Origin: an uncultured Methanosarcinales archaeon | Lineage (GTDB): Archaea > Nanobdellota > Nanobdellia > Woesearchaeales > DATDXC01 | Length of the DNA: 62,515 nucleotides | Reading direction: 5' to 3' | NCBI GenBank assembly: GCA_964510025.1 | Contig: CAZDZV010000009.1 | Span: 1 to 62,515 of the forward strand | Shown: positions 46,990-62,515 of the stretch, piece by piece | How positions within the stretch are numbered: position 1 is the stretch's first letter | Layout of the letters: the number at the start of each line of letters is the position of its first letter | Notes under the pieces: generated by a model | The model's database searches: none | Told to the model about the DNA's origin: nothing | Seen by the model: only the letters and a program-made list of their open reading frames with translations | Translations under genes and position numbers: made by a program

Positions 46990-47234
46990 ACCCCTTCCTT
47001 ATGCGCTTTAGTTTAAATAATTTTCTTTAATTACAGCTTCATGGGCGGATGGCCTCATCAGCAGTGGCTGTTTGTTTCCCAATCAGGGAAACTTCGCTTT
47101 TGACATCAAATCTCTACATCAATAAAACTACGCTTAATGGGTGATAATTTGAATATTACTCGAAAAACCTTAATTATTGAAAGAAGCCTAGACCTAACGA
47201 AAAATTTATATACAATGTATCTAATTTACAAATT

Positions 47235-47663
47235 ATGTTTGATGATTCATTCGCACCAAAAAGAGGAAGAAAAAATTCTAATCCACTTGAAGGAGGTTTA
47301 GATTTCGTATTAGGTCCTAAAAAAGAAGCCAAACCCAAAAGGCAACCAACTAAAACTTCTCAGAAAGCTGCTGTTTTTGATAAACAAAATGGCAAATGTT
47401 ATCGATGTAAGAAAAAATTAAAATTGGGTCATACTGATTATCATCATCTCAAATTTGTAAGCAAAGGAGGTAAGACTACTAGAGATAATCTAGTAGCTTT
47501 ATGTGCAAATTGTCATAGGGAAATACATGTTGAAGAAAAAGCAAAAAAAGCTGATAAAAAAGCTAAAACAACAAAAAAAGATGATTCTCCTTTAGGTGGA
47601 AGCATTTTTGGTGCACCTCCTAAACGAAGAAAATCTAAAGGTTTATTTGATTTTGGATTTTAA
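47235..47663 (+). CDS. HNH endonuclease
   Basis: CYRC...DYHHLKFVSKGGKTTRDNLVALCANCHREIH. Confidence 0.88.
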   Translation: MFDDSFAPKRGRKNSNPLEGGLDFVLGPKKEAKPKRQPTKTSQKAAVFDKQNGKCYRCKKKLKLGHTDYHHLKFVSKGGKTTRDNLVALCANCHREIHVEEKAKKADKKAKTTKKDDSPLGGSIFGAPPKRRKSKGLFDFGF

Positions 47664-47943
47664 CGGTCTGGGCTTTTAATTCTATATTTTGATTGTGCTT
47701 CGCACTTGAAGAACGGGTTTCTCTGCATCATACTGTGCCTACGCTTCGCTTCGGCATTTTTTCTTGCAGAAAGAACACATAACAGCGCGATGCTAGCCAA
47801 AATATTACTCGGGGTACACAATATAATTTTTTTTACAAAGAAGGGGGCCACTCAGTAAGGCACTTCGTGCTTAATGTATTTCTTCAAAGAATCGGGGGCA
47901 TTAGATAAAAATTAAAATGGATAGTTTCGGGGGCTTTACTATA

Positions 47944-49551: not shown

Positions 49552-49741
49552 GGTTATCCACCCTTAATTTTGCTGCCCCTTGCTTAATATCTAATTCCAA
49601 TTCCTTTGTATAAGCATACTTTTCACCAGCGGAGGTACTTTGTAGTTCCAACAATAATGCTCTTTCTAAGAATGTTTTAATTTCATCAGGCGCATCACTT
49701 TCTCTGATTTTTTTCTCAATAAGGGGATTAAATTTCACCAT
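49541..49741 (-). CDS. Small protein between helicase and SMC ATPase (PbeB-like)
   Basis: 66 aa, IKTFLERALLLE...Y; position in the operon. Confidence 0.6.
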   Translation of the reverse strand: MVKFNPLIEKKIRESDAPDEIKTFLERALLLELQSTSAGEKYAYTKELELDIKQGAAKLRVDNHED

Positions 49742-49749
49742 AGTATCAC

Positions 49750-51870
49750 CTAATTAAATATTTCACCTTCAAAATCGATAACTTTCTTCAAACAATCTAC
49801 TCTATTATCAGCAGAGTCTGCAAATTCTTTGTATCTTTTCATTTCTTTCTCAAATATTTTCATTTCCATCTCATGTAATTCTTTTATGCTTATATGTTTT
49901 ATTGGCGGAACCACAATAAAGTCATAAATTACTGCTTTATCTTTATTCGGGTATGGTCTAAGGATTCTACCCCTTCTTTGTATATATTCTTTTGGATTTC
50001 CGGTGCTAGCTAATATAATGGCAGTTCTTGCAGATTTAACATCAACACCTTCATCTAAGCATTTCATAGCAACTAAAATAGAATAATTCCTCTTTTCAAA
50101 CTCTTCTAGAAGGAAATCTCTCTCAGATAATCCACCATATTTATCTTCTGGCTTAATGCCCTCTTTGCTAGTAAATTTATGTTGTCTAATATCAAATTCA
50201 GATATTATTGATTGTACCCTATCCATTTGTTCTGGAGAAACATACACCAAACAATTATTTATTGAGATAATTTTTTTAAGAAGGTCTCTAAAAACATTGT
50301 ATTTTTCTCTAGAATTGGTTATTATCTTTTGTCTTTTAATATATAGAAGGTTAAATAATTCATCTTTTTCCTTTTTATCTTTTATTACAAAAAACGATCT
50401 AGCTATCTTTTTTGTCTGTTCTTCATATTCTTGTAATTCAGACTCAGTCAATTTAACAAAAAGAGGTATATAATCATATTTCACAAGAAAAGTTTTCCCG
50501 GTATCTGGATTAATAGTACTAATAGCTTTTTTTAGGGAAAATTCATAGACTGTTCCTTTAAAAAATTCCATGATGATATCCGTACCTTCATCATCAAACC
50601 ATCTGCTAGGCGTTGCACTTAATCCCAATTTATATTTATATAATTCCTCAATTAATCCCTTTCTCCTTTCGATTGATCCTATGCCATGAACTTCGTCACA
50701 TATCAGTAGAATAGGATATTGGATTTTCTTGATCCTATCAACAAAATCGGGCATCGCAAATGTTGTGTGTGTTGTTAAAACTATTAACTTATTCAGAACT
50801 TTATTTCTTATATCATAAGTTTTATCCATTAATTCACTTTTCCACCTAGGATTGCTACTATCAGCGATAAGAGTTTCAAAATCCATATCAAAATCATTAA
50901 TATTATCAAGCCATTGCTTAACAAGATGAGTATATGGAGCAGATATTACAACAACAAGATCCCTAATTTCCTTATTGATCTCTTTTACACAACCTAATGC
51001 AGTAAATGTTTTTCCTGTTCCTGTAGCCATTTCAAATATACCATGAGAACCATTATCAATCCATTTAGATATCGCTTCATCTTGATACTCCCTTAATTTT
51101 ATTTTCTTAGTTTTCTTTTTGATAATCAAATCTTCGATTTCTTTTCTATGGATTATTTCTTCAGCAATTTCTTTTCTAATTCTTATAAATTCCTCATTAT
51201 CTCTAGGTGCTTTTTGTATTAGCCCTTTGTTAAAAGCTTCAGATACTTCATATACTCTTACCCTTTTCCCCTCATCATTCCATAAAATATCAAATCTCTG
51301 AATATCTGGATTAAGGTGTGCTAAATCTCCTTCTTTCCAACTGCAGAAAACATGAAATTGTTCATCATTATTTAGCCAACCACCCACTGTCTCGTTCTCT
51401 GAACCTGAAAAAGACAGGATATTTCCTTCATCATCATATAATACCCCAATTTTTTGGTGTTCTATTCCCTTATTAACAACAGCAATTTTAATCTCTAACC
51501 GACCTTCTTTAATCATCCATCCTAGCATTCTAATATGATCTCTCTGGAGTTCATCTTCAATATTCTCCATATCTACTAAAATTTCTTGCTCTTTGTCCCT
51601 AATAGCTGACTTTATGGATTCTTGGTCTTCCTTTGAGATAACTACATTTGCTATAAGCCTTACTTTCCCATTTTTCTTTATTAATTCAGTTATACCTTTT
51701 GCAGCTATAGCTAGAGCATTAGAACAGAAAAACCCTGCAACTCTATCATATTTAACAGATTTGGAAAGAACAGGAATATAGAAATCAGTAAGTAAAGTAA
51801 CTTCATCTGAATAATATACCGGTTTAATATCTAATTCTTTGAATCCCACTTTTGTAATGTAAATTGACAA
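49750..51870 (-). CDS. PLD-nuclease + SF2 DEAH helicase (PbeA / phosphorothioation-associated restriction enzyme-like)
   Basis: YDRVAGFF, HQK...FSGSENET, LREYQ, MATGTGKT, DEVH, LGLSATP, LDEGVDV, QRRGRILR. Confidence 0.85.
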   Translation of the reverse strand: MSIYITKVGFKELDIKPVYYSDEVTLLTDFYIPVLSKSVKYDRVAGFFCSNALAIAAKGITELIKKNGKVRLIANVVISKEDQESIKSAIRDKEQEILVDMENIEDELQRDHIRMLGWMIKEGRLEIKIAVVNKGIEHQKIGVLYDDEGNILSFSGSENETVGGWLNNDEQFHVFCSWKEGDLAHLNPDIQRFDILWNDEGKRVRVYEVSEAFNKGLIQKAPRDNEEFIRIRKEIAEEIIHRKEIEDLIIKKKTKKIKLREYQDEAISKWIDNGSHGIFEMATGTGKTFTALGCVKEINKEIRDLVVVISAPYTHLVKQWLDNINDFDMDFETLIADSSNPRWKSELMDKTYDIRNKVLNKLIVLTTHTTFAMPDFVDRIKKIQYPILLICDEVHGIGSIERRKGLIEELYKYKLGLSATPSRWFDDEGTDIIMEFFKGTVYEFSLKKAISTINPDTGKTFLVKYDYIPLFVKLTESELQEYEEQTKKIARSFFVIKDKKEKDELFNLLYIKRQKIITNSREKYNVFRDLLKKIISINNCLVYVSPEQMDRVQSIISEFDIRQHKFTSKEGIKPEDKYGGLSERDFLLEEFEKRNYSILVAMKCLDEGVDVKSARTAIILASTGNPKEYIQRRGRILRPYPNKDKAVIYDFIVVPPIKHISIKELHEMEMKIFEKEMKRYKEFADSADNRVDCLKKVIDFEGEIFN

Positions 51871-52048
51871 GATTATTTAAAAATAATGGTTATTTTTCGA
51901 TTTTTAGCCCCCAACTCCGGATTCCTACGGAAATTTACACTGCTTCGCAGAATCTACAATATTAGTCTCTTTTGTTTTAAAAATATAGGCTCGCCTACGG
52001 CTCGTAAGTTACATGTAGCCACTCACATATTCTTCGAGAAAAAGCCCT

Positions 52049-52288
52049 CTATTTCTTAAATAGTTTTATCAGTCCTACTACTCCGACTATTGCCCAGGTG
52101 GCTTCAAGAATTACAAACGGCAGAAAGCCGATTAATATAGAAGCATAACAAGCAAGACCTCCACCAAGTATGTTCATTATTACATATGTCTTTGTATCTT
52201 GCATTAAGATCTTAAACAGATTCAGAAAAAATGCTAACAACAGAAGAAATACTCCAACCGAACCAACAATAACTGGAAATTCTATCAT
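52049..52288 (-). CDS. CBU_0592-like small membrane protein
   Basis: VGSVGV.LLLLAF, Y..MNILG, PFVILE..W. Confidence 0.7.
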   Translation of the reverse strand: MIEFPVIVGSVGVFLLLLAFFLNLFKILMQDTKTYVIMNILGGGLACYASILIGFLPFVILEATWAIVGVVGLIKLFKK

Positions 52289-52501
52289 ACATTCTTATGT
52301 TAATTACTTCTATTTATATTTATCGGGCTTTCCTTGCTCCCCCCACTTCGTTCTGTTCGTTTCGGCTAACAGGGCCCAGATGTTGTATTCAATTGAAAAT
52401 CGGTCTAATATTAGTAAGAGCCCCCCAGAAAATCTCGACTGTTTATTAGAAAGGTTTTTATAATTATACAAATCCTAAGTTAATAAGTTGGGGAAAATAC
52501 A

Positions 52502-53608
52502 ATGAAGATTTACTGGATTATTGTAATAATTTCTTCTACTTTAATGCTTATATCTTGTGGTATAGAAGTTCCAGAAGTAAAGGGCAGGAAAATATTCAAA
52601 GAATTTAAAGAATATGGGGTTTCATTTGAAACTGACAGCAAGACAATTAATGAATATACGGAACTTCTAAGTACTGGAACTCGAAAAAGAGCAGATACTA
52701 CAAAATATTTAACATCGAATAAACCCAATATAATCAAACTTGCAAATGATTTAAGAGCTAAAGCAGAAGAAAATGAAGAATCAGTAGTGGATTATATTAT
52801 CAATTTCGTTCAGTCAATCGGATATAGATTTGATGACACTGTCGGTTACGACGAATTTCCAAAATATCCAGAAGAAACAATCTATGAAGGGAATGGAGAT
52901 TGTGAAGATATGTCTTATGTACTTTATTCACTTTTAGAGGCATTGGGTTACGATGTTATCTTAATTGATTTATCTGGGCACATGATGGTGGGCTTAGCTT
53001 GTGAAGAAGCTGAGTCAGGATTATGTGGTAAATCCTACTATGAAAAAGGTAGAAAAAAATATTATCCTATTGAAACAACAGGCGAAGGCTGAAAATTAGG
53101 TAGTCTTCCAGATGAATACAGGGAAATGAAAGCTTCTTTAATAAAAAATGAAGGAACAGAAGCATTTAGAGCTTTGAATTGTTACAATAAAGAGATCCAA
53201 GAAGTTAAAGAAGTAACTGTTGCAGTTCCAGAACAGTATGAAACTAAAGAGCCCTGTGAATATAGGGTGTCAAGTGTAACTGCTGTGGAAAAGACTTCTG
53301 GATTAATCGCAATTTGGGAATATGGTTTAAAATATACTGAACTTTCATTTACTGTAACAAATACTGATGATGTTTCATGTAGTTATGCAGTTGAACTAGA
53401 TGTCAATGGTAAAACCATATTAAGAGATACTGCTTCCTTGTATTCCGGAGAAAAAGATACATTTGAAAAAATATATGATAATTCTGGAGATGAAAAAGTG
53501 AGGGCTGAAGCAAATGTCATACCAGAAGCAAAAACAGTTACAAAAACTAGATATATAGAAAAAACTGAATCAAAAGTTGCAACTAAGGAGGTTAAGTATT
53601 GTCACTAA
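52502..53608 (+). pseudogene. Transglutaminase-like lipoprotein interrupted by in-frame TGA at 53090-53092
   Basis: LISC lipobox; FVQSIGY..D, PKYPEET, GDCED, HMMVG, IETTGEG*KLGSLPDEY continuing in frame into ORF 53126-53608. Confidence 0.8.
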
Positions 53609-53824
53609 TTAGATTTTCTGGGCTTCTATAATCTATAAACGGACAGCCTCTGCTTTATTAGGGTGGATTTTTGTGATGGCTCTGTCCACGAGGAGAATTT
53701 TTCGAGAAAATCGAACTTCCTTTAATTCCGATGTTAGATACAATCCAATTTTAGAGATAGCAAAGTCGGGGCACCACCCTACAATCTGCAAACATTTTTA
53801 TAATAGCTAATTAATTTACTATAG

Positions 53825-54436
53825 ATGGTAAGCGCCGTGACAAAATGGGTTATAGCTATATTTATTGCTGTTTTTATAATCCCAACTATTGTCACTTTTT
53901 TTATTGTCTCGAAAGGAACAGATTCATTTGATCCCAATCTTATAGGCACACTTGCCATTATCATAGGGATAATCATTCCTCTTATTTTAGTTTGTGGATT
54001 ATTCTACTGGATTTTCACATTCCAAAAGAAAAGAGAAAAGGATTTGATGAAATATGCTTCGGAATTAGGATTATCCTATGGTTCAGATGAGGGAGAGCAA
54101 ATTTTTGGAGAAATCAAAAATTTTGAAATTTTTAGTAAAGGCATATTGCCTGCAATATGGCACATGATTAAAGGCAAATGGTCTGGAATTCCGGTTGTAG
54201 TTTTGGATTATAGCTATAAGGCCGGAACTATTCAAAATAGGGTAAATCGGTATCAAACAATAGCCTATGCCAAGGTCAAAAATGCAAATTACAAACGGAC
54301 AAAAATTGAAAAAGACGGATTTACTTTTGAGACAGAAGGAGATAAGATAATTGGATATAAAAGATCTTATTACATCAAGCCAAAAGAATTGAGGAACTTC
54401 TTGGATAAAATTGTGGAGAATATAAAAGCATTATAA
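53825..54436 (+). CDS. Membrane-anchored hypothetical protein
   Basis: Two N-terminal TM helices, soluble C-terminal domain. Confidence 0.7.
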   Translation: MVSAVTKWVIAIFIAVFIIPTIVTFFIVSKGTDSFDPNLIGTLAIIIGIIIPLILVCGLFYWIFTFQKKREKDLMKYASELGLSYGSDEGEQIFGEIKNFEIFSKGILPAIWHMIKGKWSGIPVVVLDYSYKAGTIQNRVNRYQTIAYAKVKNANYKRTKIEKDGFTFETEGDKIIGYKRSYYIKPKELRNFLDKIVENIKAL

Positions 54437-54555
54437 CCTAGTCTATTATTTTCTGGGAGAAATATCTAAGTGAACAGAATCTATGTAAGTAGCAGTCCAA
54501 TCGCCAAACCCTATAACACCGTGCAAACGCCGATATGTGCCTGTAATTCTTTGAG

Positions 54556-54587
54556 ACTCCACTTATAGTGTAGTGATAGTGGGAATA
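54556..54587. repeat. 32-bp imperfect direct repeat copy 1 (candidate recombination/operator site)
   Basis: ACTCCACTTATAGTGTAGTGATAGTGGGAATA; 28/32 identical to 56158-56189. Confidence 0.8.
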
Positions 54588-54626
54588 TGCCTATAATTCT
54601 CTCATGATAATTAGATTGTGAGGTGA

Positions 54627-55049
54627 ATGAAAGTGGCAAAGAATGTTTTAGATAAGGCTGATGAATTTGTGAAGTTAGTTCAAAGACAGCTACCAAGGAT
54701 GGATAAGGATTCAATAAGAAGTGCAGTGTCAAGACTAAACAACCATTTCTATTATAAGAAAAAATCCAAGAAATACAAGCCTTCAGCAAATGAAATGAAG
54801 ATCTGTGAGATTATGATAAGGGAGGGTTTGAGTCCTTCACAGGTTTACAAATGGTTGCTTCTTATGGATGCTGACCCAGAGATAAAGGAACTTCTGCGAC
54901 AGAAAAAAATCAGTATCAAAAATGCATTCAAAAAGATGAATGAAGCTAGATTTGAAGAATACAAAATGACAGTTGGAAGGATTAAATTAAGGTCAGATAT
55001 TGAAGAAGCTTTCAAACTTTATATCCACCCGAGAATTGGAACACCATAA
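54627..55049 (+). CDS. ParB/Spo0J-type HTH DNA-binding protein lacking the CTPase domain
   Basis: GLSPSQVYKWLLLMDADPEIKELLRQKKISIKNA pattern; GAGGTGA RBS. Confidence 0.55.
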   Translation: MKVAKNVLDKADEFVKLVQRQLPRMDKDSIRSAVSRLNNHFYYKKKSKKYKPSANEMKICEIMIREGLSPSQVYKWLLLMDADPEIKELLRQKKISIKNAFKKMNEARFEEYKMTVGRIKLRSDIEEAFKLYIHPRIGTP

Positions 55050-55064
55050 TTGGAGGTGAAGAAT

Positions 55065-55853
55065 ATGGTAAAAAGAAAGGATGAAATTAAGAAAAGAAAA
55101 TCAAAGCCAAAAAAATTGAGGAGATACAGGAGTAAAAAAGGAGCTTTGCCAAGGATACCTCTGAAAAGCCAGATGATTACCATAGTGCAAAGTTGCAGTG
55201 ACATGAGGTTTTTGATTATTTATACATTAGGCTGTTTTCTTGCTTTGAGGATTGGAAGCATAATTCGATTAGAATGGGATCATGTGAACTTTGAATTGAA
55301 TAAGATAGGGATATTTAATGATAAAAATGTTAATCGGACTGTTGAAGGGGACTACGGATGTGATAGGTATCTGACAATACCTCATTTCCTTGTGCCCATA
55401 CTGAAATCATGGAAAGCAATGAACAGAGGAGAGGAGTATATAATACCTCGTGATAGGTGTGGTGCAAAAGAAAAGAGCGTCATTAGATTCTGGGAAAAAA
55501 GATACCATGCATACTACAAATCATTAGGTATGTTGAAAGAATGGCTTCCAACAAAGAATGGGGTAAGATGGAATTTTAATGCCCATACTCCAAGGCATAT
55601 TGGACTGACAAATCTTTATTTGAGAGGTATGCCTATTGGAGACATTCAAGAATTTGCAGGTCATAAGGATATTAAGACAACAATGAGATATATCCATATT
55701 GCAGGCGAGTGCATGAGAAAAAGCATAGAAATGGCATATCAGCCAGATGTTCAGGTAACAATACAACCAGAGGTAAAGACTCTTGTCTATGCATTAAGAC
55801 AAATGATGAAGGAGGTTCCAGAAAATGGCATTTTGCAACAACAAATCGTTTGA
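55065..55853 (+). CDS. Tyrosine recombinase/integrase (catalytic domain only)
   Basis: ALRIGSI (R), DK (K), HTPRH, AGH, TTMRY; GGAGGTG RBS. Confidence 0.92.
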   Translation: MVKRKDEIKKRKSKPKKLRRYRSKKGALPRIPLKSQMITIVQSCSDMRFLIIYTLGCFLALRIGSIIRLEWDHVNFELNKIGIFNDKNVNRTVEGDYGCDRYLTIPHFLVPILKSWKAMNRGEEYIIPRDRCGAKEKSVIRFWEKRYHAYYKSLGMLKEWLPTKNGVRWNFNAHTPRHIGLTNLYLRGMPIGDIQEFAGHKDIKTTMRYIHIAGECMRKSIEMAYQPDVQVTIQPEVKTLVYALRQMMKEVPENGILQQQIV

Positions 55854-56175
55854 GAATAAATATTGTCTTTGGAAAAGGTCAAAAGGTCATATAGCAATGC
55901 GAATTGCAGGCAGTGGTAAATCAGATGGTGCAATATGCGATTGTGTTGTTATTGACAACCACAATGTTAAGTTTGTGGAAGTTAAAGCATGCAAGGATGA
56001 GGTATTCTATGTTAGGACTGACATAAAAAAACAGCTATCACATCTCCGTGCTGCTTGTTTGTTATATAACCTTAAGGCTGGGCTTGCTATAAGATTCAAA
56101 AACAGAGGATGGATTGAGGTAGATATATCTTGTGACATCCCAAATAAAGTGAAATATACTCCGCCTATAGTGTAG
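55825..56175 (+). CDS. Hjc-like Holliday junction resolvase (PD-(D/E)XK)
   Basis: FE...KG..AMRIAGSG...DCVV...FVEVK...LAIRF...W. Confidence 0.8.
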   Translation: MAFCNNKSFENKYCLWKRSKGHIAMRIAGSGKSDGAICDCVVIDNHNVKFVEVKACKDEVFYVRTDIKKQLSHLRAACLLYNLKAGLAIRFKNRGWIEVDISCDIPNKVKYTPPIV

Positions 56176-56189
56176 TATTAGTGGGAATA
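56158..56189. repeat. 32-bp imperfect direct repeat copy 2
   Basis: ACTCCGCCTATAGTGTAGTATTAGTGGGAATA. Confidence 0.8.
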
Positions 56190-56215
56190 AACATATCCAT
56201 AGGATCAACGATCCT

Positions 56216-57055
56216 ATGTTTATGATAAAGGAAGTTTCAAAGACGGCTGTTTTAAGGCTCATAGTAAATGAGCACTACAGAAAAAGCTTACCACGATTAA
56301 ATAAAACCTTTCTGGGGTGGTATGTCGGAGATAAATTAGTAGCTGCCATGTCTTTAGGCTGGGGCGTCAGACCACTGCATACAATAAGAAAATTATTCCC
56401 AAGCTTAACAAGTCAAGACTATTTTGAGATTGGAAGGCTATGTCTTCTTGGGGATATGCCTAAAAACTCTGAAAGTCATTTCATTTCTCAATGTATGGAT
56501 TATGTGAAGAAGAACTATCTCGATATTAAGCTAATTTTCACATGGGCAGATGGCTTGCTCGGAAAACCTGGATATGTATATCAGGCTTCGAATTTTCTTT
56601 TCGGAGGTCATATTTGGACAGATGCATATTTCTCAACTAATGGTGAATGCATTCATCCTAGGACCAGCAGCAAGGTGGGAGGAAGGCTCGGTATTCAAGA
56701 GTCAAAGAACATCAAACATTTCTGGGGGAAACAGTTCAGGTATGTGTATTTCCTTTGTTCTAACAAGGAGAGAAAGCAGCTTCTCGATGAAAGCCCAATT
56801 GATTGGACTATGAATTATCCCAAAGCAGTTGATCTTGAATGGAAGAAATCTGTGGGTGGCAAGAGAATCAATTGCCAAGCTCCTTTTTATGATAAATCAT
56901 GTAATGATTTTAGTGATAATGCAAAAGCAAATTTGAGTTTTATCCAAAACAAGTCTTTGTTGAATTTCATTTATGCGGGGAAGGACTCAAGAGAGAGTCA
57001 TCAGTTTTCCAAACTGAAGGGGCTGGGGCAGTTCCAGCTCTCCGCACTACAATAA
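56216..57055 (+). CDS. Mom-family adenine-modifying GNAT-fold protein
   Basis: HY, EIGRLCL, PKNSESHFIS, IFTWAD...GYVYQASNFLFGG, HPR, KQFRYVYFL, YPK: motif order typical of phage Mu Mom homologs. Confidence 0.8.
   Translation: MFMIKEVSKTAVLRLIVNEHYRKSLPRLNKTFLGWYVGDKLVAAMSLGWGVRPLHTIRKLFPSLTSQDYFEIGRLCLLGDMPKNSESHFISQCMDYVKKNYLDIKLIFTWADGLLGKPGYVYQASNFLFGGHIWTDAYFSTNGECIHPRTSSKVGGRLGIQESKNIKHFWGKQFRYVYFLCSNKERKQLLDESPIDWTMNYPKAVDLEWKKSVGGKRINCQAPFYDKSCNDFSDNAKANLSFIQNKSLLNFIYAGKDSRESHQFSKLKGLGQFQLSALQ
56975..57046 (+). ncRNA. tRNA-Gly(UCC)-like cloverleaf, non-canonical, embedded in the 3' end of the Mom-family ORF
   Basis: Acceptor GCGGGGA/TCTCCGC + A73; D-arm GACTC-AAGAGA-GAGTC; anticodon arm TCAGT-TTTCCAA-ACTGA; 4-nt variable loop; T-arm GCTGG-GGCAGTT-CCAGC; 72 nt. 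Confidence 0.8.
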
Positions 57056-57075
57056 ATCATTGGAGGTAAGCAAAA

Positions 57076-57339
57076 ATGCTAGGCAAAGAATTAGAAAAAT
57101 ATGAAAGAAAAAAAGTAGTTTTGTATGTTAAGGCAAATGAAAAAGCAGAGAGATTCTATCTGATTCTGATGAGGCTTTCTGACAACGGCATTGAATGTAT
57201 AGATGCAAGAGGGCGAAATATGACCTTTAGCTTTGAGGCAGTGGAAGGTATATCAGAGATGACAGCTAAACAGAAAGAGAAGTTTGACTACATAAGACAC
57301 GGAAAAGCAGGCATTCAAAATGATTTATCTTCATATTAA
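57076..57339 (+). CDS. Small beta-barrel (Sm/SH3-like) hypothetical protein
   Basis: GGAGGT RBS; short beta-strand pattern. Confidence 0.55.
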   Translation: MLGKELEKYERKKVVLYVKANEKAERFYLILMRLSDNGIECIDARGRNMTFSFEAVEGISEMTAKQKEKFDYIRHGKAGIQNDLSSY

Positions 57340-57366
57340 TTGTGTGCATATTGGAGGTGTGTACAG

Positions 57367-60297
57367 GTGGCAGATGAGAAAGAAGTAATTATCAGATTTA
57401 TTCAATTGTGCAGTAATGAATGCATTGAGGGCTGGGCTAAAGAAAGAAAATACAGCATTGCACTTCTGAAAGAGCTAAACATAGGTTGTTGCACATTGGA
57501 TGTTATGAACACGCTTATTCAAGAATTTGGCAAAGAGATATTACAGCAGCTAAAATTTATCCAGCAGGGAAAATTCAAATATGTTAATAGGATAATAATT
57601 CCTTATACAAAGAGATATTTTGCAGCCAGGTCCAAGTTGTCTGGTGTGAAATACAAGAATCTTTTCCCTATCGATCTTAAGAAAGAACCATTCTACATCA
57701 AAGGAGATGAGGATTCACCCTGCATCATAGTTGAGGGTGAAACAGACGCTATTGCTCTTAAGCATATATACCTCACTTACAATATATTCTCAATTGGTGG
57801 AACAACTTCCACCAGTCTATTAACAAAACTTAATGATTATTACAAAGGAAATGATATACTTTTATGTTTTGATAATGATTCGGCAGGTGGGGAAGCATTA
57901 AACAAATCAATAAGGATATTGAATCAGAAGAAATTAAGTAAACTTACATTTCCAGAACAATACAAGGATATTGATGAGTTCTTTAAATCAGGAGATATAG
58001 ATACTATAAGGAAAGCATTAAGCATAGTTGAATTAGAGTTTGAGGACATAGAACCAAAAACACCTGTTGAGCATCCACACGATCTTCAATCCATATATGA
58101 TAACATTAAGAAATGCAAAGCATATGCTAATATGCTTGTTAATACCCAGAATTGGAGAGAAAGGGGCTGGTTGACGCTTCTATTAAAGAATAAATATGGA
58201 TTATCTCAAGAGGAATTAATCTCATTCTATGAACAATACAATGAATGGGAAGATTATGATCCTGAAATAACAGCAAGGGAAGTTGCAAGATACTTTAACA
58301 AAGAAACCAGCAGTGGGAAGTTAGAGAAGTTTGTAAGTAAACGCAAGCTAATTGAACAGGGATACTGCATGGAGAATTGTGCAGATTGTCCGATCTATTC
58401 TGAAGCAAATATCATGGCTCCAAGAGCTGCTTTGAATAATGGATATTCCTTAACGATATTCAAAGACAAAGACAAGTTCAAGATTCAAATAAGGGATTCT
58501 AATGAGACCATAAAGGCAGTGGTTTCAGCAAAGGATGAAGATATTCTTGACATGCCTTCAGTTGAAAATAAGCTTATCCAGAAATTACGATTACTAAAGG
58601 TAGCAAAAGACAAGGATGGTGCTGAACTTCTGGTCATGAATGCCTATGAAGAACTTCGTAAATCCTTTGAAGAATATTTAAGCATTATTGAGAAAGATGA
58701 GAATTTCTTGAGTGATGATGAGATTAATAGCAATATGAGTGTGGTAGAGGAAGAAGAAGCACTAAATCTCTTGAATGATGCAGCCATCTTATTGAAGATA
58801 TTAGAGTTTAAAGAAAATAGGCTTGGTCATGCTGGTGAATATAATAACTGCATATTGTTGTTGCTGACTTACACTTCAAGAAAACTGAGAAAACCTATTG
58901 GCATTATTGTGAAAGGCGATTCTGCAGGTGGAAAAAGCTTTACAGCAATGACAATGATCTTATTTGTTCCTACTGAAGATATCAGAGATTTTACTCGAAT
59001 TACGCCTCAAGACTTGTTTTATGTTAAGCAAGACTACTTAAAAAATAAGTTATTGATAATATTTGAACGACCTGGTGCTGAAGGAAGTGATTATAGCATA
59101 AGGACTTTGCAAAGCGAAAGAAAGCTGAAGCTGGGTATTCCTTTAAAAAATCCAAGAACAGGAGATATTGAGCATAGAGAAAAGATAGTTGAGGGTCCTG
59201 TAGCTTATGTTGAAACAACAACTAAATCAACTATTCATGCTGAAAATGAAACTAGAGTTTTTAGTTGTTTCATTGATGACAGTGAAGAACAAACAATAGC
59301 CATATTTGAGAAAGATAATCAAAATATTATCCCAATTGATGTTGAAAAGCAAAAGGAATCTATGCGTTTGTTTAAGAATACTCAAAGACTGTTAAAGCAA
59401 TACGATGTAATTGTGCCTTTCAAACAATTTATTGAGTTTCCCAAAAAACCATTAAGAGTAAGAAGGGATAGAAATCAATTCTTGGCAATAATTGATGCAT
59501 GTGCTTTATTACACCAGAACCAAAGAGAGAAGATTAAGATCGGTGAAACAGAATATCTGATTGCTAATTTCTTTGATTATGGTGTTGCCTTAATTCTTTC
59601 ACTAAATATACTCAAGGATATTGTGAGTGGTTTGCCTGGCAAGAGTAAGGAGCTTCTTGATGCGGCAACAAGGCTACATAATGCTGGCAAGATAAATAAT
59701 ATCACATATAAAGATTTGATGAAAGAATTGGATTGGTCTAAAGGCAAGATTTCTCAAAACATTGGACCTTGTTATGACCAAGGATATCTCACAGCAATTC
59801 AGAGCGGAAAAGGCAAGAAAACAATATTAGGAGTAGAACATAACACAAGACCCGAGTGTTCATTAGTGTTTATTAAACAGTTAGAGGACTTATTCAGGGT
59901 AAAAGAAAGTGAAATAGCCAAAAAGCTGGGTAGAGTTAGCGTTTACAATGAGAACAACAGTAATTTTGTCACAGAGAATGAAAAATACAAGAAAATTCTC
60001 ACAACCCTGTATGCTCTTTGCCTAAACAGAAACACCTCTCTGGAAATCCTTAAAGAAAGCCCAGATGTGCTCAAAGAGGCTGAAAACTGTTTACTAAATG
60101 GTTTTACACAGTCTCAAGATATTCCTATTAAAAGAGAAGAAACCTTCACCAAGCTACCTTCTGGGGAGGTTGGAAAATGCAGCTACTGTGGTAGAGACAG
60201 CTATCTTGAATACAAAGATCAGGATGGCAACTATTGTTGTAAGCAATGTAAAGGTGATTCTTTATCTGTGGAGGAGGAATCAATATCAGATTCATAA
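57367..60297 (+). CDS. Primase-ATPase fusion replication protein (TOPRIM + P-loop + wHTH + Zn finger)
   Basis: IIVEGETDAIAL, CFDNDSAG, KDIDEF; GDSAGGKS Walker A, ENETR; C-terminal CSYC...CCKQC; GGAGGTG RBS before GTG 57367. Confidence 0.85.
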   Translation: MADEKEVIIRFIQLCSNECIEGWAKERKYSIALLKELNIGCCTLDVMNTLIQEFGKEILQQLKFIQQGKFKYVNRIIIPYTKRYFAARSKLSGVKYKNLFPIDLKKEPFYIKGDEDSPCIIVEGETDAIALKHIYLTYNIFSIGGTTSTSLLTKLNDYYKGNDILLCFDNDSAGGEALNKSIRILNQKKLSKLTFPEQYKDIDEFFKSGDIDTIRKALSIVELEFEDIEPKTPVEHPHDLQSIYDNIKKCKAYANMLVNTQNWRERGWLTLLLKNKYGLSQEELISFYEQYNEWEDYDPEITAREVARYFNKETSSGKLEKFVSKRKLIEQGYCMENCADCPIYSEANIMAPRAALNNGYSLTIFKDKDKFKIQIRDSNETIKAVVSAKDEDILDMPSVENKLIQKLRLLKVAKDKDGAELLVMNAYEELRKSFEEYLSIIEKDENFLSDDEINSNMSVVEEEEALNLLNDAAILLKILEFKENRLGHAGEYNNCILLLLTYTSRKLRKPIGIIVKGDSAGGKSFTAMTMILFVPTEDIRDFTRITPQDLFYVKQDYLKNKLLIIFERPGAEGSDYSIRTLQSERKLKLGIPLKNPRTGDIEHREKIVEGPVAYVETTTKSTIHAENETRVFSCFIDDSEEQTIAIFEKDNQNIIPIDVEKQKESMRLFKNTQRLLKQYDVIVPFKQFIEFPKKPLRVRRDRNQFLAIIDACALLHQNQREKIKIGETEYLIANFFDYGVALILSLNILKDIVSGLPGKSKELLDAATRLHNAGKINNITYKDLMKELDWSKGKISQNIGPCYDQGYLTAIQSGKGKKTILGVEHNTRPECSLVFIKQLEDLFRVKESEIAKKLGRVSVYNENNSNFVTENEKYKKILTTLYALCLNRNTSLEILKESPDVLKEAENCLLNGFTQSQDIPIKREETFTKLPSGEVGKCSYCGRDSYLEYKDQDGNYCCKQCKGDSLSVEEESISDS

Positions 60298-60312
60298 AAA
60301 ACTTTAGGAGGA

Positions 60313-60678
60313 TTGATAAAAATGGAAATAGCAGTTGAGAAATCGAATAAGTTGAAAGATGGACTGCACCAAGGAGTTATTGTTGATGTGCAGTATCGGG
60401 ACCAACCATTCGAGTACACAGATGTCCTGATTGAAGCAGAGGGAGCAAAGCTAAAAGCTGGATATCCGACAAAGATAATGAAAAACAGTAAATTGGGTAA
60501 GTTGTTACAGCGATTCGGTTCAGAACTTGTTGAAGGAAATACAATAGACCCTAATAAAGTGTTAGTAGGGAAGCAATGTAATTTTATGACTATGACCAAG
60601 GACAGCGAAAACGGTTCATTTGCAACAGTAATTAGCGATTCAGTAAAACCAATGGAAGAAAAAGTAGGGGATAAATAA
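60313..60678 (+). CDS. Putative OB-fold single-stranded DNA-binding protein of viral/plasmid type
   Basis: DGLHQGVIVDV, SKLGKLLQRFG, LVGKQC pattern; follows the primase gene. Confidence 0.55.
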   Translation: MIKMEIAVEKSNKLKDGLHQGVIVDVQYRDQPFEYTDVLIEAEGAKLKAGYPTKIMKNSKLGKLLQRFGSELVEGNTIDPNKVLVGKQCNFMTMTKDSENGSFATVISDSVKPMEEKVGDK

Positions 60679-60690
60679 ATCCCCTATTTT
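60665..60690 (+). terminator. Stem-loop followed by T-run
   Basis: TAGGGGAT-AAATAA-ATCCCCTA-TTTT at the end of the SSB-like gene. Confidence 0.5.
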
Positions 60691-60718
60691 ATGTAACATT
60701 ATGTAACTGGTATGTAAA

Positions 60719-61300
60719 ATGCAAAGATGGGAAAGAGATGAAATAATACTGAAAGAGAAGATTGATTATTTGAAGAAAGCCTTGATTAGCTACAAGAAGG
60801 CAAATAAGCAACTTCAATATAAGAACCAGGAATTAAGAAAATTAATTGACAAGAATAGTTTAGTTAGTGAGAAACAACATCTAGAATATGAACTTGACAG
60901 AATGAAACAACAACTTAACTCAATAAGAAAGAATTATCAGTTAAGGATAGATAGGTTAGAAACCACTATTAAAGAGCAATCAGCTGATATAATTCATAAA
61001 GAAGCCCTAACACTTTGGAAAAGAGGAAGAAGTTTATCTGCTAATGAGATTTTGATAATGCAAATCCTTAAAGCCTGTGAGAAAAAGCCTAGCATTTCTC
61101 AAATAGAATTGTTATCAAAACTTCCCAGACAGACTACATATGATACAGTTGGATATTTAAGAAAGAAAGGGTTGATAAAAACAATTAAGAAAGGCAAATG
61201 CAGATTAGTTTCATTAAAAGAAAAACATATTCCGAATAATATTCCCAACAATTCTTCAAAAAAGTTAGACGGGACTGATCATAACAATAAACACGGTTGA
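60719..61300 (+). CDS. Coiled-coil + winged-HTH protein
   Basis: N-terminal heptads; ISQIELLSKLPRQTTYDTVGYLRKKGLI. Confidence 0.7.
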   Translation: MQRWERDEIILKEKIDYLKKALISYKKANKQLQYKNQELRKLIDKNSLVSEKQHLEYELDRMKQQLNSIRKNYQLRIDRLETTIKEQSADIIHKEALTLWKRGRSLSANEILIMQILKACEKKPSISQIELLSKLPRQTTYDTVGYLRKKGLIKTIKKGKCRLVSLKEKHIPNNIPNNSSKKLDGTDHNNKHG

Positions 61301-61358
61301 TTATGCTTACGGTCAGAAGATCCAATATTTTAAATACCTGGTCGAGATCATTTATTTT

Positions 61359-61802
61359 ATGGTCATTTACAACATATCATATTTTAAGCCGATGAGTAAC
61401 CAGACAAAAGCAAAACTCAAGCAGGACCCAAAGGGTAAGCATTTGTTAAATGGTGAGAACTTACATTCTATGGTAAGCCTTGGTAGGGGGTTTATTTGTT
61501 CTGAAAAACATAAGAGATATGGTTGGTTTGATAAACTGATAAAGTCTGAAAAATATAAGGTTGCTGCAGTTCTTTCAGGGAAATGTAAGAATCCTGGTAG
61601 GTATTCAATAACAGCTAATATAAAGAGCAAAAGAAAAGGTCACCAATTAAAGCATGTTGCTAATGTTACTTTGAACAATCAAGACTTTAAGAAAAAGAAA
61701 GAATATGTAAAAGAGGCTATATCCATAATTCAACCTGTTCCACAACATGGAACAGTCCCTAAAAAGGCTAAAGAACTATCAATAAGGGATATATTTGAAT
61801 GA
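61359..61802 (+). CDS. Hypothetical basic protein
   Basis: 147-aa Lys-rich ORF co-oriented with the element. Confidence 0.55.
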   Translation: MVIYNISYFKPMSNQTKAKLKQDPKGKHLLNGENLHSMVSLGRGFICSEKHKRYGWFDKLIKSEKYKVAAVLSGKCKNPGRYSITANIKSKRKGHQLKHVANVTLNNQDFKKKKEYVKEAISIIQPVPQHGTVPKKAKELSIRDIFE

Positions 61803-62202
61803 TCCAATGAAGTATAGAAATTAATATATAGCTCCTTTGCCTTATGTTCATCATTCAATCATGCATTCATTCTAGAGATAGGTCTGGCAACAAGGAGTCG
61901 GGGATTTTTTGCCACAACGGTTAATAAATCACCTCCAATGAAGTTTAACTTTCGTGAAATTCTCCCCGACTTCCTCTTTATTTTAGAGGTCTTAATTTCA
62001 TTATTGGTCTGTTATAGAAATAGAAATCAAACCTGTATTTATCATAACTTTGGGCTGCCCAGCTAACTAATGCATCATTATCAAGTAAGCTGGAAATCTT
62101 CCATCCCATTGAGGGCAGGGAAGTTGAGATGGTACGGCTTGCTATAGAAATAATAAGATTATAAAAAAAAGACTATAAATTTTATCTAAAATTATCAATA
62201 AT

Positions 62203-62515
62203 CTAGATAGTTGCTCCAAACAGTAATCCTCCAATTGTTGCATAAACTATGACGAGCCCTACATAAACAGCTGTTTTCTTTGTTCCAAGAACGCCTCTTA
62301 CTACTAGCATGTTTGGTAAGCTTAAGCTAGGTCCCGCCAGTAGTAATGCTAGTGCAGGTCCTGAGTGCATTCCTTTAGCTATGAGTGCTTGTAAGATAGG
62401 TATTTCTGTTAATGTTGAGAAATACATGAATGCTCCAAATATTGATGCAACCAAGTTTCCTATGACTGTGTTTTGTCCAACCAGATTGGTGATTATGGTT
62501 TCGGGGAGTAATGGC
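62203..62515 (-). CDS. DUF318/ArsP-family permease, 5'-partial
   Basis: MYFSTLTEIPI, GM..GPALALLLAGPSLSLP. Confidence 0.88.
   Translation of the reverse strand, partial: PLLPETIITNLVGQNTVIGNLVASIFGAFMYFSTLTEIPILQALIAKGMHSGPALALLLAGPSLSLPNMLVVRGVLGTKKTAVYVGLVIVYATIGGLLFGATI

Follow-up and report, generated by a model that had tools for sequence, protein, structure and literature searches.

A tRNA-Gly-like cloverleaf conserved at the 3' end of an archaeal Mom-family gene is a candidate glycine carrier for DNA modification

Introduction

Mu Mom is a GNAT-fold enzyme that places glycine on N6 of adenine in double-stranded DNA and so shields it from restriction, and the sections of the recent report drawn on here describe transfer of the glycine from Gly-tRNAGly, with Gly-tRNAAla being rejected (Silva et al., Nat Commun 2026, PMC13219725). 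The enzyme accepts each of the three tRNAGly isoacceptors of E. coli, and the authors consider the 3' end together with the glycine probably sufficient for recognition; word searches of the main text turned up nothing on tRNA genes next to mom homologs (PMC13219725). An earlier note on the DNA described below, made from its sequence, had named Gly-tRNA as a proposed Mom donor, and for Mu Mom this is now in print. Mom is the first enzyme shown, and only recently, to modify DNA with a charged tRNA.

Glycine tRNAs set aside from translation are described in staphylococci, where FmhB, FemA and FemB draw on the non-proteogenic species NP1-3 (Rietmeyer et al., NAR 2021, PMC7826273). As set out in the parts of that report consulted, GlyRS charges these tRNAGly(UCC) species, but their binding to EF-Tu and to the ribosome is poor and their D and T arms are different; they are the preferred substrates of a GNAT-fold aminoacyl-transferase, and their lineage is described as found only in staphylococci (PMC7826273).

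A tRNA-like sequence within a mom homolog has also been seen before. The ssrA islands of Dehalococcoides carry a 76-bp tRNA-Gly-like 'pseudo-tRNA' in such a gene (McMurdie et al., BMC Genomics 2011, PMC3146451). In the passages of that report available to us it appears as an unexplained locus and a primer site, at a time when Mom was thought to act 'via methylation'; no function was given for it in 2011 (PMC3146451).

Here we analyse a window of 62,515 nucleotides of archaeal DNA (contig CAZDZV010000009.1) in which the 3' end of a Mom-family gene spells a tRNA-Gly-like cloverleaf. The cloverleaf is conserved as RNA with covariation in its stems, it keeps the marks of glycine identity, and its discriminator base follows the domain of the host.

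Results

An archaeal Mom homolog in a low-GC island

All features described below lie on the forward strand of the window. The open reading frame at 56216..57055 comprises 279 codons and a stop codon (57053..57055). Its product matches Pfam family PF25680 over residues 2-187, the GNAT/Mom core of the protein, with an E-value of 2.5e-42 and 145.3 bits against a cut-off of 27.1, and by sequence it matches the Mu Mom structure, PDB 8bv8, at E 3.5e-19 (phmmer). When an AlphaFold model of the protein (pLDDT 77.6) was submitted to Foldseek, the best matches were 8bv8_B (E 2.6e-14) and 8bv8_A (E 1.6e-13), with TM scores by target of 0.76 and 0.72, respectively, and other GNATs followed from E 5.7e-06. 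The earlier note had placed the frame in the Mom family while reserving the possibility that it might belong elsewhere; profile and fold agree on the placement, and the reservation falls away. Only this frame matched Mom in a profile search of the host genome.

In the phmmer alignment R74 and S87 of the archaeal protein stand opposite R at residue 102 and A at residue 115 of the 8bv8 chain, the latter being the S124A change. With a deduced numbering offset of 9, R74 and S87 would correspond to R111 and S124, both essential in Mu Mom. S87 is invariant across our Mom alignment A1, and catalysis by the archaeal homolog is plausible. The tail of the model, residues 245-279, has a pLDDT below 50; a tail motif of the form SRE ... 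GQF recurs in many Mom homologs in the databases.

The gene sits among those of a mobile element. Upstream are a tyrosine integrase of the low-GC island (55050..55853; PF00589, E 6.5e-15) and a Hjc-type Holliday junction resolvase (55825..56175; PF01870, E 9.9e-09), and just 5' of the Mom start is a 39-nt element (56158..56196) with an 82% identical copy at 54556-54594, upstream of the frame at 54627; the repeat is a candidate shared promoter or operator. Directly 3' of Mom are an 87-codon frame without a confident family (57076..57339) and a Toprim primase-like protein of 985 residues (57340..60297). Among the island genes that were counted, GGA is used more often than any other glycine codon (75 of 210).

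With regard to the host, its genome encodes a dimeric GlyRS and lacks GlyQ, and the cellular tRNA-Gly genes of five related archaeal genomes all have A73 and canonical loops. Neither ARAGORN with introns allowed, at default and 95% thresholds, nor blastn with six tRNA-Gly sequences taken from relatives (five model matches and a GCC neighbour) found a tRNA-Gly(UCC) in the host assembly (97.7% complete). Given that only 22 tRNAs were found genome-wide, 10 of them with introns, this absence is weak evidence.

A tRNA-Gly-like cloverleaf within the Mom reading frame

The earlier note had described a fully paired 72-nt cloverleaf with a single G-U near the end of the Mom frame, and threading confirmed it, with 21 of 21 stem pairs formed. 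From position 1 to the discriminator this non-canonical, tRNA-Gly-like element occupies 56975..57046. It begins at codon 254 of the 279-codon frame, in frame 0, and lies over the last 26 codons, spelling Mom residues 254-277; the last base of the stop codon is 9 nt beyond its own last base. The minimum-free-energy fold of the RNA is the same cloverleaf (-31.4 kcal/mol, z -3.55), and none of 200 shuffled sequences folded as well.

The 5' strand of the acceptor stem (56975..56981) pairs with its 3' strand (57039..57045) over 7 bp, one of them the G-U, and the first pairs are G1-C72, C2-G71 and G3-C70. Position 8 is A in place of U8. The D arm (56984..56999) has a stem of 4 bp and a loop of 8 nt, CAAGAGAG, whose '18' and '19' places hold A and G, respectively. 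The anticodon arm (57001..57017) has a 5-bp stem and the loop TTTCCAA, with U33, A37 and the anticodon UCC (57008..57010), and is followed by a variable loop of 4 nt, AGGG (57018..57021). The T arm (57022..57038) has a 5-bp stem and the loop GGCAGTT, giving G54, G55, C56 and G58 equivalents. The discriminator is A (57046), after which no CCA is encoded, the next bases being CTA. Every statement that the earlier note had made on the anticodon and its place, the variable loop, the acceptor pairs and the discriminator proved accurate.

Glycine identity in tRNA rests on C35, C36, G1-C72, C2-G71, G3-C70 and a domain-specific discriminator, and the window copy has the complete set, with A as its discriminator. 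Its anticodon loop is likewise that of an elongator tRNA, with 7 nt, U33, an NCC anticodon and a purine at 37. The elbow and core, on the other hand, depart from the canonical set of U8, G18-G19, T54-Psi55-C56 and A58, of which the sole remnant is the equivalent of the 19:56 G:C pair.

Detection against background

The cloverleaf escapes general tRNA finders, as the earlier note had anticipated. ARAGORN at default settings reported no tRNA anywhere in the window, and Rfam gave no tRNA match at E <= 10 within 56700-57300. A snoRNA-like Rfam match upstream was sub-threshold (E 1.2), and we took it as chance. The relaxed search that the note had proposed did recover the element: at 90% thresholds the sole ARAGORN call in the window was a tRNA-Gly(tcc) at 56975-57047.

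A purpose-written cloverleaf threader, run on both strands of 80 loci and the window (1.27 Mb), returned just two matches with 21 of 21 pairs, namely the window cloverleaf and a canonical tRNA-Gly adjoining another Mom gene. Covariance model R2, which was built from 25 other loci with the window left out, scored the window cloverleaf at 85.9 bits over its full length (E about 4e-18, a rough value) and found no other match at E <= 10 in the 62.5 kb. Across the window and 192 Mom loci (1.2 Mb), R1 gave 27 matches of 71.6-91 bits, the next best being 40.5 bits, and all 27 lie on the strand of Mom and touch it. The window cloverleaf scores 88 bits with R1 versus 44-49 bits for the cellular tRNA-Gly of related archaea, and in 150 other genomes of the same phylum, searched under stricter filters, R1 found nothing above 50 bits.

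Conservation of the element as RNA

The same element is present at the 3' end of Mom in 25 other bacterial and archaeal loci and upstream of Mom in one more, and on this comparison it appears to travel with Mom genes in many viruses. For the analysis of pairing we used a gapless alignment of 26 rows, A3, in preference to a MAFFT alignment, A2, which mixed tRNA types and misplaced gaps. Stem cells in A3 are paired in 96.2% of cases, compared with 67.6% after shuffling and at most 49.1% when the partners were slid, and 16 of the 21 pairs change on both sides, with 156 covarying cells versus 46 in the shuffled alignment. Retrieval by loop motifs, pairing being ignored, gave 26 distinct matches, of which 19 are at Mom 3' ends and form 20-21 of 21 pairs each; the remaining seven form 7-13 of 21 and are chance matches. 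C35, C36, G1-C72 and C2-G71 are invariant in all 26 rows. The comparison of homologs that the earlier note had called for therefore yields a 3'-end cloverleaf with an invariant NCC core and covarying stems across bacterial and archaeal Mom loci.

The element also persists where the protein tail diverges, again in line with what the note had looked for. It is intact at loci where it is not translated as such, a stop codon lying just 5' of it in L099, at nt 7-9 in L125 and at nt 37-39 in L183, and in L102 it is intact and read in another frame. Column 15, the third base of a fourfold-degenerate codon, is A in 26/26. In 22 of the 26 loci, nonetheless, the Mom frame runs through the whole element in one common frame, and therefore the protein tail may matter as well.

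Within this conserved framework the elbow varies in a concerted way. Positions 18:55 are A:G in 16 rows and G:T in 10, with no mixed rows; 54:58 is G:G in 18, T:A in seven and T:T in one; and 19:56 is G:C in 25 of 26. The window copy has A18:G55, in common with 15 other rows, and G54:G58, in common with 17, and it conforms to the family in A8, an 8-nt D loop beginning CAAG, the 4-nt variable loop and C35/C36. The earlier note had spoken of lost elbow residues; A8, the D loop without GG and the T loop GGCAGTT bear this out, but the 19:56 G:C pair is kept and 18:55 and 54:58 switch together, and so the elbow is rebuilt or remodelled rather than lost.

Other positions are looser. U33 is kept in only 11 of the 26 members, and at position 34 there are 14 members with C, nine with T and three with A. 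CCA is encoded directly after the discriminator in 10 of 27 members. As discriminator, the window copy and that of L179, the one named archaeal MAG, have A, and all nine named bacterial MAGs have T; the neighbours of the A73 loci are DNA methylases, helicases and an integrase, among which no domain-specific marker of the host was found. By eye, the 60 nt 5' of the 27 family elements share no common motif that might be a promoter of their own.

Other tRNA-like elements beside Mom genes

Association of Mom with glycine tRNAs extends beyond this family. At default settings ARAGORN called 31 tRNAs in 155 unique Mom loci; the Gly-type calls among them number 12, each of which touches Mom and shares its strand. 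Of 156 unique rows, 38 have a Gly-type tRNA or look-alike contiguous with Mom. Free-standing, canonical tRNA-Gly(UCC) genes stand directly beside other Mom genes (the L071 group, L088 and L173), and a separate Mom-linked group (L149, L151, L172 and L052) combines a glycine-type acceptor, T73 and CCA with anticodon loops of 5-6 nt. Non-glycine tRNAs adjoin Mom at four loci (Ser twice in one locus, Gln, Leu and Ser), and part of the adjacency may simply reflect tRNA-rich neighbourhoods. In a quick Mom tree of 147 of the 156 rows, from which nine with short matches were left out and which we used only for the clustering of labels, the tRNA-element label was clustered and the window lay on a long branch.

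No contiguous tRNA-like element was found in 114 of the 156 unique Mom rows, although a few of these loci end at a contig edge. Mu Mom, moreover, works without a private tRNA, and both observations count against a private carrier.

Discussion

Given that Mu Mom takes its glycine from Gly-tRNAGly, the reading that best accommodates these data is that the cloverleaf is the gene for a specialised tRNA-Gly-like RNA that serves Mom as a private glycyl carrier, and we hold this to be probable, with moderate confidence. How the RNA would be made, used and kept from translation we infer as follows. The element would be inherited together with Mom and its RNA would form the tail end of the mom transcript, from which the enzymes that process tRNA ends in the host would excise it, and it would receive CCA. 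The host's dimeric, archaeal-type GlyRS would load glycine after recognising C35 and C36, the opening pairs of the acceptor stem and A73, and the glycine would pass to Mom and not to the ribosome. Separation from the translating tRNA pool would come from the rebuilt elbow (A18:G55 and G54:G58) and from the loosened anticodon loop of the family. Since the anticodon loop of the window copy is fully canonical, exclusion from translation would rest on the family pattern (U33 in 11/26) and not on this copy. The module proposed in the earlier note, an enzyme with a dedicated glycyl carrier, is supported in part, by the conservation of the family, the glycine marks and the donor of Mu Mom.

Excision of the RNA would truncate the mom message, a point that weighs against a carrier, as does the lack of a shared promoter motif 5' of the family elements. 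The enzymes that process tRNAs and add CCA rely on the tRNA elbow, and so a rebuilt elbow might hinder maturation.

In a broader proposal, which we regard as doubtful at present, the same sequence would serve three ends, as the C-terminal tail of Mom, as a glycine carrier insulated from translation and as a means of dosing coupled to the message, with an elbow that can be rebuilt in bacteria and archaea. Because the RNA must be excised from the mom message, the supply of carrier would be tied to the end of that message, and each excision would close its coding life and thereby dose a hazardous DNA-modifying enzyme. Were this so, the near-universal elbow would prove rebuildable (G18:U55 to A18:G55, T54:A58 to G54:G58), and a tRNA could be chargeable and yet ignored by the ribosome in bacteria and archaea alike.

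The location of the element is open to other interpretations. That all 27 strong matches lie in or touch the mom frame on its strand, with no conserved promoter of their own visible, and that their position varies like that of a punctuation mark (at the 3' end, at the 5' end or just outside the frame; the 2011 report, as far as consulted, has its pseudo-tRNA within the first 150 bp of mom, PMC3146451) would suit a cis-acting tRNA-like element of the mom message that is not a donor. Such an element might recruit processing enzymes, GlyRS or Mom and set the 3' end, stability or translation of the mRNA, or it might separate the message of a potentially harmful enzyme from the downstream primase genes. 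A processing signal, however, needs the acceptor and T arms and not invariant C35/C36, a domain-matched discriminator or an encoded CCA, and free-standing canonical tRNA-Gly(UCC) genes occupy the same place beside other Mom genes (the L071 group, L088 and L173); we consider the cis-acting role unlikely. It is decidedly unlikely, in our judgement, that the element is an ordinary if odd decoding tRNA-Gly(UCC) for the GGA codons of an AT-rich element, incidentally located in mom. Viruses often carry tRNAs, the anticodon loop of the window copy is of the canonical 7-nt form (U33, UCC and A37), GGA leads among the island's glycine codons (75/210), and the host assembly yielded no cellular tRNA-Gly(UCC), although with 22 tRNAs found in the whole genome that last point is weak evidence. 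What speaks against decoding is the family, in which U33 is kept in only 11 of 26 members, A34 and C34 forms occur and related Mom-linked forms have 5-6-nt loops unable to decode, and the specificity of the link to Mom, which all 12 Gly-type ARAGORN calls touch.

Selection on the protein offers a further account, in which the 24 residues spelled by the cloverleaf are a functional Mom tail and the fold is a by-product or relic of tRNA capture. Readthrough in the same frame at 22 of 26 loci and the SRE ... GQF motif in many database homologs agree with it, yet compensatory stem changes alter amino acids freely, the element is kept where it is untranslated or in another frame, synonymous third positions are frozen and, as weak evidence, the modelled tail has a pLDDT below 50 at residues 245-279; this account is accordingly very improbable. 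It is barely credible, finally, that the element is an att-site remnant, that integration left behind a copied host tRNA-Gly, or that the fold arose by chance. tRNA genes are frequent targets of integrative elements, and a tyrosine integrase lies 1.1 kb upstream of the cloverleaf. Against this, nothing similar was found elsewhere in the host genome by blastn-short or R1, and so the match to a host tRNA-Gly that the earlier note had named as a possible refutation failed to appear. No repeat of the cloverleaf was found within 46800-62515, and the cellular tRNA-Gly genes of relatives (five genomes), whose loops are canonical, reach no more than 44-49 bits. The cloverleaf has low-GC element genes on either side, and it is interior to the island and not at its edge because the primase-like gene (57340..60297) lies downstream. 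For the Dehalococcoides islands with the published counterpart, the integration site is ssrA rather than a tRNA-Gly gene, according to the portion of the report used here (PMC3146451). We therefore rejected the remnant, and chance is excluded by the 1.27-Mb threader scan and the 85.9 bits of R2.

If many Mom genes do bring their own glycine carrier, the anti-restriction module would be self-contained and could move between hosts, even across the divide between bacteria and archaea, with a discriminator base that seems retuned to the GlyRS of the host. With the staphylococcal cell-wall tRNAs as the one clear precedent, the carrier would be the second tRNA kept from translation for a GNAT transferase. 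No earlier case would lie on mobile DNA or inside the reading frame of its own enzyme. The family offers a natural series of intermediates in the rebuilding of a tRNA elbow. In practical terms, tRNA finders of the general type overlook this class of element, and gene callers run Mom frames straight through it.

Comparison with known systems

The archaeal Mom and Mu Mom belong to one family by Pfam, sequence and fold, with R111 and S124 equivalents apparently kept. They differ in that the host here is an archaeon, in some 90 extra C-terminal residues in the window protein, and in that Mu Mom, on the published account as consulted, draws on host tRNAs, whereas the mom gene of the window itself spells a tRNA-Gly look-alike.

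Beside a canonical tRNA-Gly, the cloverleaf shares the geometry, the NCC anticodon and the glycine-type acceptor and discriminator, and differs in A8 for U8, a D loop without GG and the T loop GGCAGTT for TTCRANY. The staphylococcal NP tRNAGly species would resemble it in the outline of how they work and not by membership. Their genes, in the sections of the report consulted, are chromosomal, free-standing and devoted to cell-wall synthesis (PMC7826273), whereas the RNA of the window lies inside the reading frame of its enzyme, on mobile elements and viruses, and its acceptor would be DNA.

A published counterpart, compared here by its description as far as seen, is that of Dehalococcoides, which likewise has a conserved tRNA-Gly-like cloverleaf inside a mom homolog and an integration module with recombinases and a primase-like gene (PMC3146451). 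There the pseudo-tRNA is 76 bp long and falls within the first 150 bp of a bacterial gene that has serine recombinases beside it; in the archaeal window the cloverleaf has 72 nt and stands at the 3' end.

A Mom-family gene with an embedded cloverleaf

The ORF at window positions 56216-57055 (forward strand, 279 residues) had been taken for a Mom-family enzyme, and both sequence and fold bear this out: residues 2-187 match PF25680 (Pfam, E 2.5e-42), a sequence search matches it to 8bv8, the crystal structure of Mu Mom (E 3.5e-19), and an AlphaFold model (mean pLDDT 77.6) finds both 8bv8 chains as its top fold matches (E 2.6e-14 and 1.6e-13), with generic GNATs ranking behind them from E 5.7e-06. 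R111 and S124 are reported to be essential in Mu Mom (Silva et al. 2026, PMC13219725). From the alignment with 8bv8 we infer that R74 and S87 are their counterparts, because only a chain-index shift of 9 gives an arginine at 111 and the alanine of S124A at 124; S87 is unchanged throughout a 22-sequence homolog alignment. Within the length band searched there were 797 homologs at E <= 1e-5; the tails of many of the nearest are translated cloverleaf, and some near homologs terminate in an apparent translated canonical T arm.

From codon 254 of the ORF on, nucleotides 56975-57046 (forward strand) form a 72-nt tRNA-Gly-like cloverleaf, and threading matched every feature that the earlier note had described: a 7-bp acceptor stem including one G-U, A8 and G9, a 4-bp D stem with the loop CAAGAGAG, a 5-bp anticodon stem with the loop TTTCCAA (UCC at 57008-57010), the variable loop AGGG, a 5-bp T stem with the loop GGCAGTT, and the discriminator A at 57046. 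The observation is confirmed. CCA is not encoded, and the Mom stop codon ends 9 nt beyond the final cloverleaf base. The minimum free energy fold of 73 nt is the same cloverleaf (-31.4 kcal/mol, z -3.55), with 0 of 200 shuffles equally stable.

Standard tRNA finders miss the element, as had been anticipated: ARAGORN at default settings made no tRNA calls in the window, and Rfam gave no tRNA match around the cloverleaf at E <= 10. With ARAGORN thresholds relaxed to 90% it was the sole call in 62.5 kb, typed tRNA-Gly(tcc); at 85% five further window calls appeared. A custom threader scoring the 21 canonical stem pairs, applied to both strands of the window and of 80 viral Mom loci (1.27 Mb in all), returned two perfect matches, the window cloverleaf and a canonical tRNA-Gly adjoining another Mom gene.

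A conserved RNA family linked to Mom

Contigs with Mom relatives were taken from viruses (the best 80 of 586 confirmed), metagenomes (the best 80 of 519) and genomes (32). The total is 192 loci, and 155 of their Mom DNA stretches are distinct; near-copies persist among them, and therefore counts do not equal independent lineages. A gapless alignment of 26 rows and 72 columns, window included, displays the shared cloverleaf, invariant C35/C36 and stem covariation that the earlier note had envisaged for Mom homologs. The covariance model built from it, searched on both strands of the window and the 192 loci (1.2 Mb), gave 27 strong matches at 71.6-91 bits, namely the 26 training rows and L146, with the runner-up at 40.5 bits; matches at 19.5-40.5 bits were ordinary tRNAs or short-anticodon-loop forms. 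All 27 contact Mom on the same strand, 26 of them at its 3' end, and in L019 the element ends 2 nt ahead of the Mom start. A second model, from 25 homologous elements with the window left out, scored the window cloverleaf at 85.9 bits (E ~4e-18, E-values being rough) and had no second match over the window at E <= 10. The family loci come from viral contigs, metagenomes, a Woesearchaeota MAG (L179) and nine bacterial MAGs (Planctomycetota, Verrucomicrobiota, Elusimicrobiota and 'Deltaproteobacteria'). The window cloverleaf belongs to a family of tRNA-Gly-like RNAs that are conserved, structured and linked to Mom, and is an archaeal version of it, with A73.

L019 is the nearest viral relative (3559-3852 and 3920-4774). 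Its class-A tRNA-Gly upstream of Mom is directly preceded by a small ORF, and a Mom ORF started from an ATG further upstream would translate the tRNA as an N-terminal extension (database protein P0016).

Standard pairs occupy 96.2% of the paired cells in the 26-row alignment, against 67.6% when shuffled and no more than 49.1% after partners are displaced by 1-3 columns. Two-sided change was seen at 16 of 21 pairs (13.6 shuffled) and in 156 cells (46 shuffled), and the covariation score was 0.776 against 0.202 in the control. Because the original threader demands pairing, retrieval was repeated with two loop motifs alone, yielding 26 distinct matches: 19 lie at Mom 3' ends, each with 20-21 of 21 pairs, and the 7 lying elsewhere have 7-13.

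Glycine identity and a rebuilt elbow

The glycine identity set considered here is that of the tRNA literature. G1-C72, C2-G71, A8, C35 and C36 are invariant (26/26), and acceptor pair 3 is G-C in 22 of the 26 rows. Position 34 is C in 14, T in 9 and A in 3; position 33, a near-universal U in decoding tRNAs, is T in 11, A in 11, G in 3 and C in 1. The discriminator is A in 10 rows and T in 16; by named organism it is A at the archaeal locus (1/1) and T at the bacterial loci (9/9), and the window element, archaeal by host, likewise has A. In 10 of the 27 family elements the discriminator is immediately followed by CCA. Such frozen glycine marks, together with a host-domain discriminator and relaxed decoding marks, are what is expected of a GlyRS substrate with no need to decode. 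That the host is archaeal is supported by its dimeric-type GlyRS (TIGR00389, 514 bits summed), by the lack of any GlyQ match in it, and by introns in 10 of its 22 ARAGORN tRNAs; the host tRNA-Gly(CCC) also terminates in A. The 26-row model had no strong match in a further 150 genomes from the same phylum; its top five (44-49 bits) were cellular tRNA-Gly of canonical type, in which A73 is constant and the D and T loops are ordinary, and their fetched flanks held no Mom gene.

The earlier note had regarded the elbow residues as lost, but the alignment shows an elbow that was rebuilt instead. Pair 18:55 (columns 18/54) is A:G in 16 rows and G:T in 10, with no mixed rows; 54:58 (columns 53/57) is G:G in 18, T:A in 7 and T:T in 1; and 19:56 (columns 19/55) is retained as G:C in 25 of 26. 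The co-variation is perfect at 18:55 and near-perfect at 54:58, three rows that pair G54:G58 with G18:T55 being apparent intermediates. On a quick protein tree the 18:55 states interleave among close relatives (L183 and L190, sisters from one MAG; L100/L102 beside L025/L104), and therefore the switches seem to have arisen more than once. The elbow pairs support an L-shaped fold with an altered corner.

Other tRNAs beside Mom

Default ARAGORN made 31 calls across the 155 unique loci. Twelve are Gly-type (9 tcc, 2 ccc, and 1 whose loop has 6 nt), each of them touching or overlapping Mom on its strand. Canonical bacterial-type tRNA-Gly(UCC) with T73 and CCA precedes Mom by 7 nt in L141 and the L071 group, and follows the Mom stop by 1 nt in L088 and L173. 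A further group (three duplicates included) combines T73, CCA and a glycine-type acceptor with anticodon loops of 5-6 nt containing NCC; its elements end 11 nt (L052:3915-3987) or 23-27 nt (L149:2903-2975, L151:2360-2429, L172:359-429) upstream of the Mom start, and ARAGORN types two of them as tRNA-Trp. Of 156 unique rows, 38 have a Gly-type tRNA or look-alike contiguous with Mom. In 26 it is embedded; upstream forms are of the embedded class in 1, canonical in 5 and short-loop in 4, and the 2 downstream forms are canonical. Non-Gly tRNAs occur in 4 rows (L111 with two Ser, one row with Gln, one with Leu, and one with a Ser called at a relaxed threshold), and 114, some ending at a contig edge, have no contiguous tRNA-like element. 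At L111 Ser(cga) precedes and Ser(gga) follows one Mom gene (348-438 and 1243-1331); canonical Gln and Leu tRNAs flank Mom genes at L138:2904-2977 and L145:2772-2855. The non-Gly cases may reflect tRNA-cluster neighbourhoods, or other aminoacyl donors for some Mom relatives.

Island context

GC content drops from ~46% to 30-37% between about 47.9 kb and a point close to the contig end, and the low-GC island is placed at about 47200-62000. An HNH nuclease lies at the left boundary. An SMC/AAA_23-like ATPase and the ResIII/DEAD helicase next to it resemble a defence pair; the island further encodes a transglutaminase-like protein, a tyrosine integrase, an Hjc resolvase and Mom, whose gene holds the cloverleaf, followed by an 87-codon ORF and then by a Toprim primase-like protein of 985 residues. 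A search for flanking direct repeats came back empty, and the right end lies close to an ArsP permease fragment at the contig edge. The integrase and Hjc ORFs overlap by 29 nt in different frames (55825-55853). A 39-nt element, possibly a shared island promoter or operator, occurs in copies 82% identical at 54556-54594 (upstream of the HTH-like ORF 54627) and 56158-56196 (upstream of the Mom start). In relatives, Mom and the cloverleaf adjoin orphan DNA methylases (N6/N4, including a helicase-N6/N4 fusion, C5 and MT-A70; L025:1601-3814 and 5123-5740, L104:1465-2070, L102:100-627, L179:1226-2110), which fits an anti-restriction module.

Function of the cloverleaf

Judged from sequence, the most likely function of the RNA is that of a private glycyl donor for Mom, and we consider this reading probable. 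A cis-acting tRNA-like element for processing or regulation would also lie against Mom on its strand, as all 27 strong matches do; given the glycine marks frozen across the family, we think it unlikely. That the cloverleaf is a plain decoding tRNA is rather improbable, the decoding marks being relaxed across the family. A weak point in its favour is that no tRNA-Gly(UCC) was detected on any host contig, nor a (GCC), where ARAGORN recovers only 22 tRNAs in total. The host genome is rated 97.7% complete; 10 of its 22 ARAGORN tRNA genes are intron-bearing, the Rfam tRNA model finds 18, and a 100-nt 'Gly(acc)' call (C5:102372-102471) looks spurious.

Selection might instead act on the Mom protein tail, with the RNA fold a relic. 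The whole element is read through in one frame at 22 of 26 loci, which speaks against a purely incidental overlap; the tail may therefore be used, or at least tolerated, as protein too. The element is nevertheless intact where Mom stops just ahead of it (L099), where Mom stops at element nt 7-9 (L125), in L102, though translated there in a different frame, and in L183, where a stop falls at nt 37-39 in the anticodon loop and the T arm is still conserved. Column 15, which in the usual frame is the fourfold-degenerate third position of a serine codon, is A in 26/26 rows, and the modelled tail (residues 245-279) has pLDDT < 50, a weak hint of disorder. We hold this explanation very unlikely. An att remnant or host tRNA copy, or chance, is scarcely credible: an element at an integrase-bearing island could have such an origin, but the host genome holds no sequence like this element elsewhere, 46800-62515 contains no repeat of it, and it lies among the island genes and thus internal to the island.

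Comparison with known systems

A private glycyl donor would join two lines of work that no paper found in the open-access library searched connects, Mom-embedded or adjacent tRNA-Gly genes and a tRNA-dependent Mom mechanism. The main text of Silva et al. (2026, PMC13219725) has no mention that we found of tRNA genes beside mom homologs, and the account of jumbo-phage Mom by Iyer et al. (2021, PMC7824862), in the part consulted, discusses an acyl-CoA donor and draws no tRNA link. McMurdie et al. (2011, PMC3146451) described a tRNA-Gly-like locus of 76 bp, conserved within the first 150 bp of a mom homolog in Dehalococcoides ssrA islands and a marine fosmid, and left without a functional reading in the passages concerned. 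Non-proteogenic tRNAGly is documented in staphylococci (Rietmeyer et al. 2021, PMC7826273). Gly-tRNA as the Mom donor, which the earlier note had mentioned as a recent proposal, is demonstrated for the Mu enzyme: Mu Mom moves glycine from Gly-tRNAGly onto adenine N6 in dsDNA, with all three E. coli tRNAGly isoacceptors working and Gly-tRNAAla failing (Silva et al. 2026, PMC13219725).
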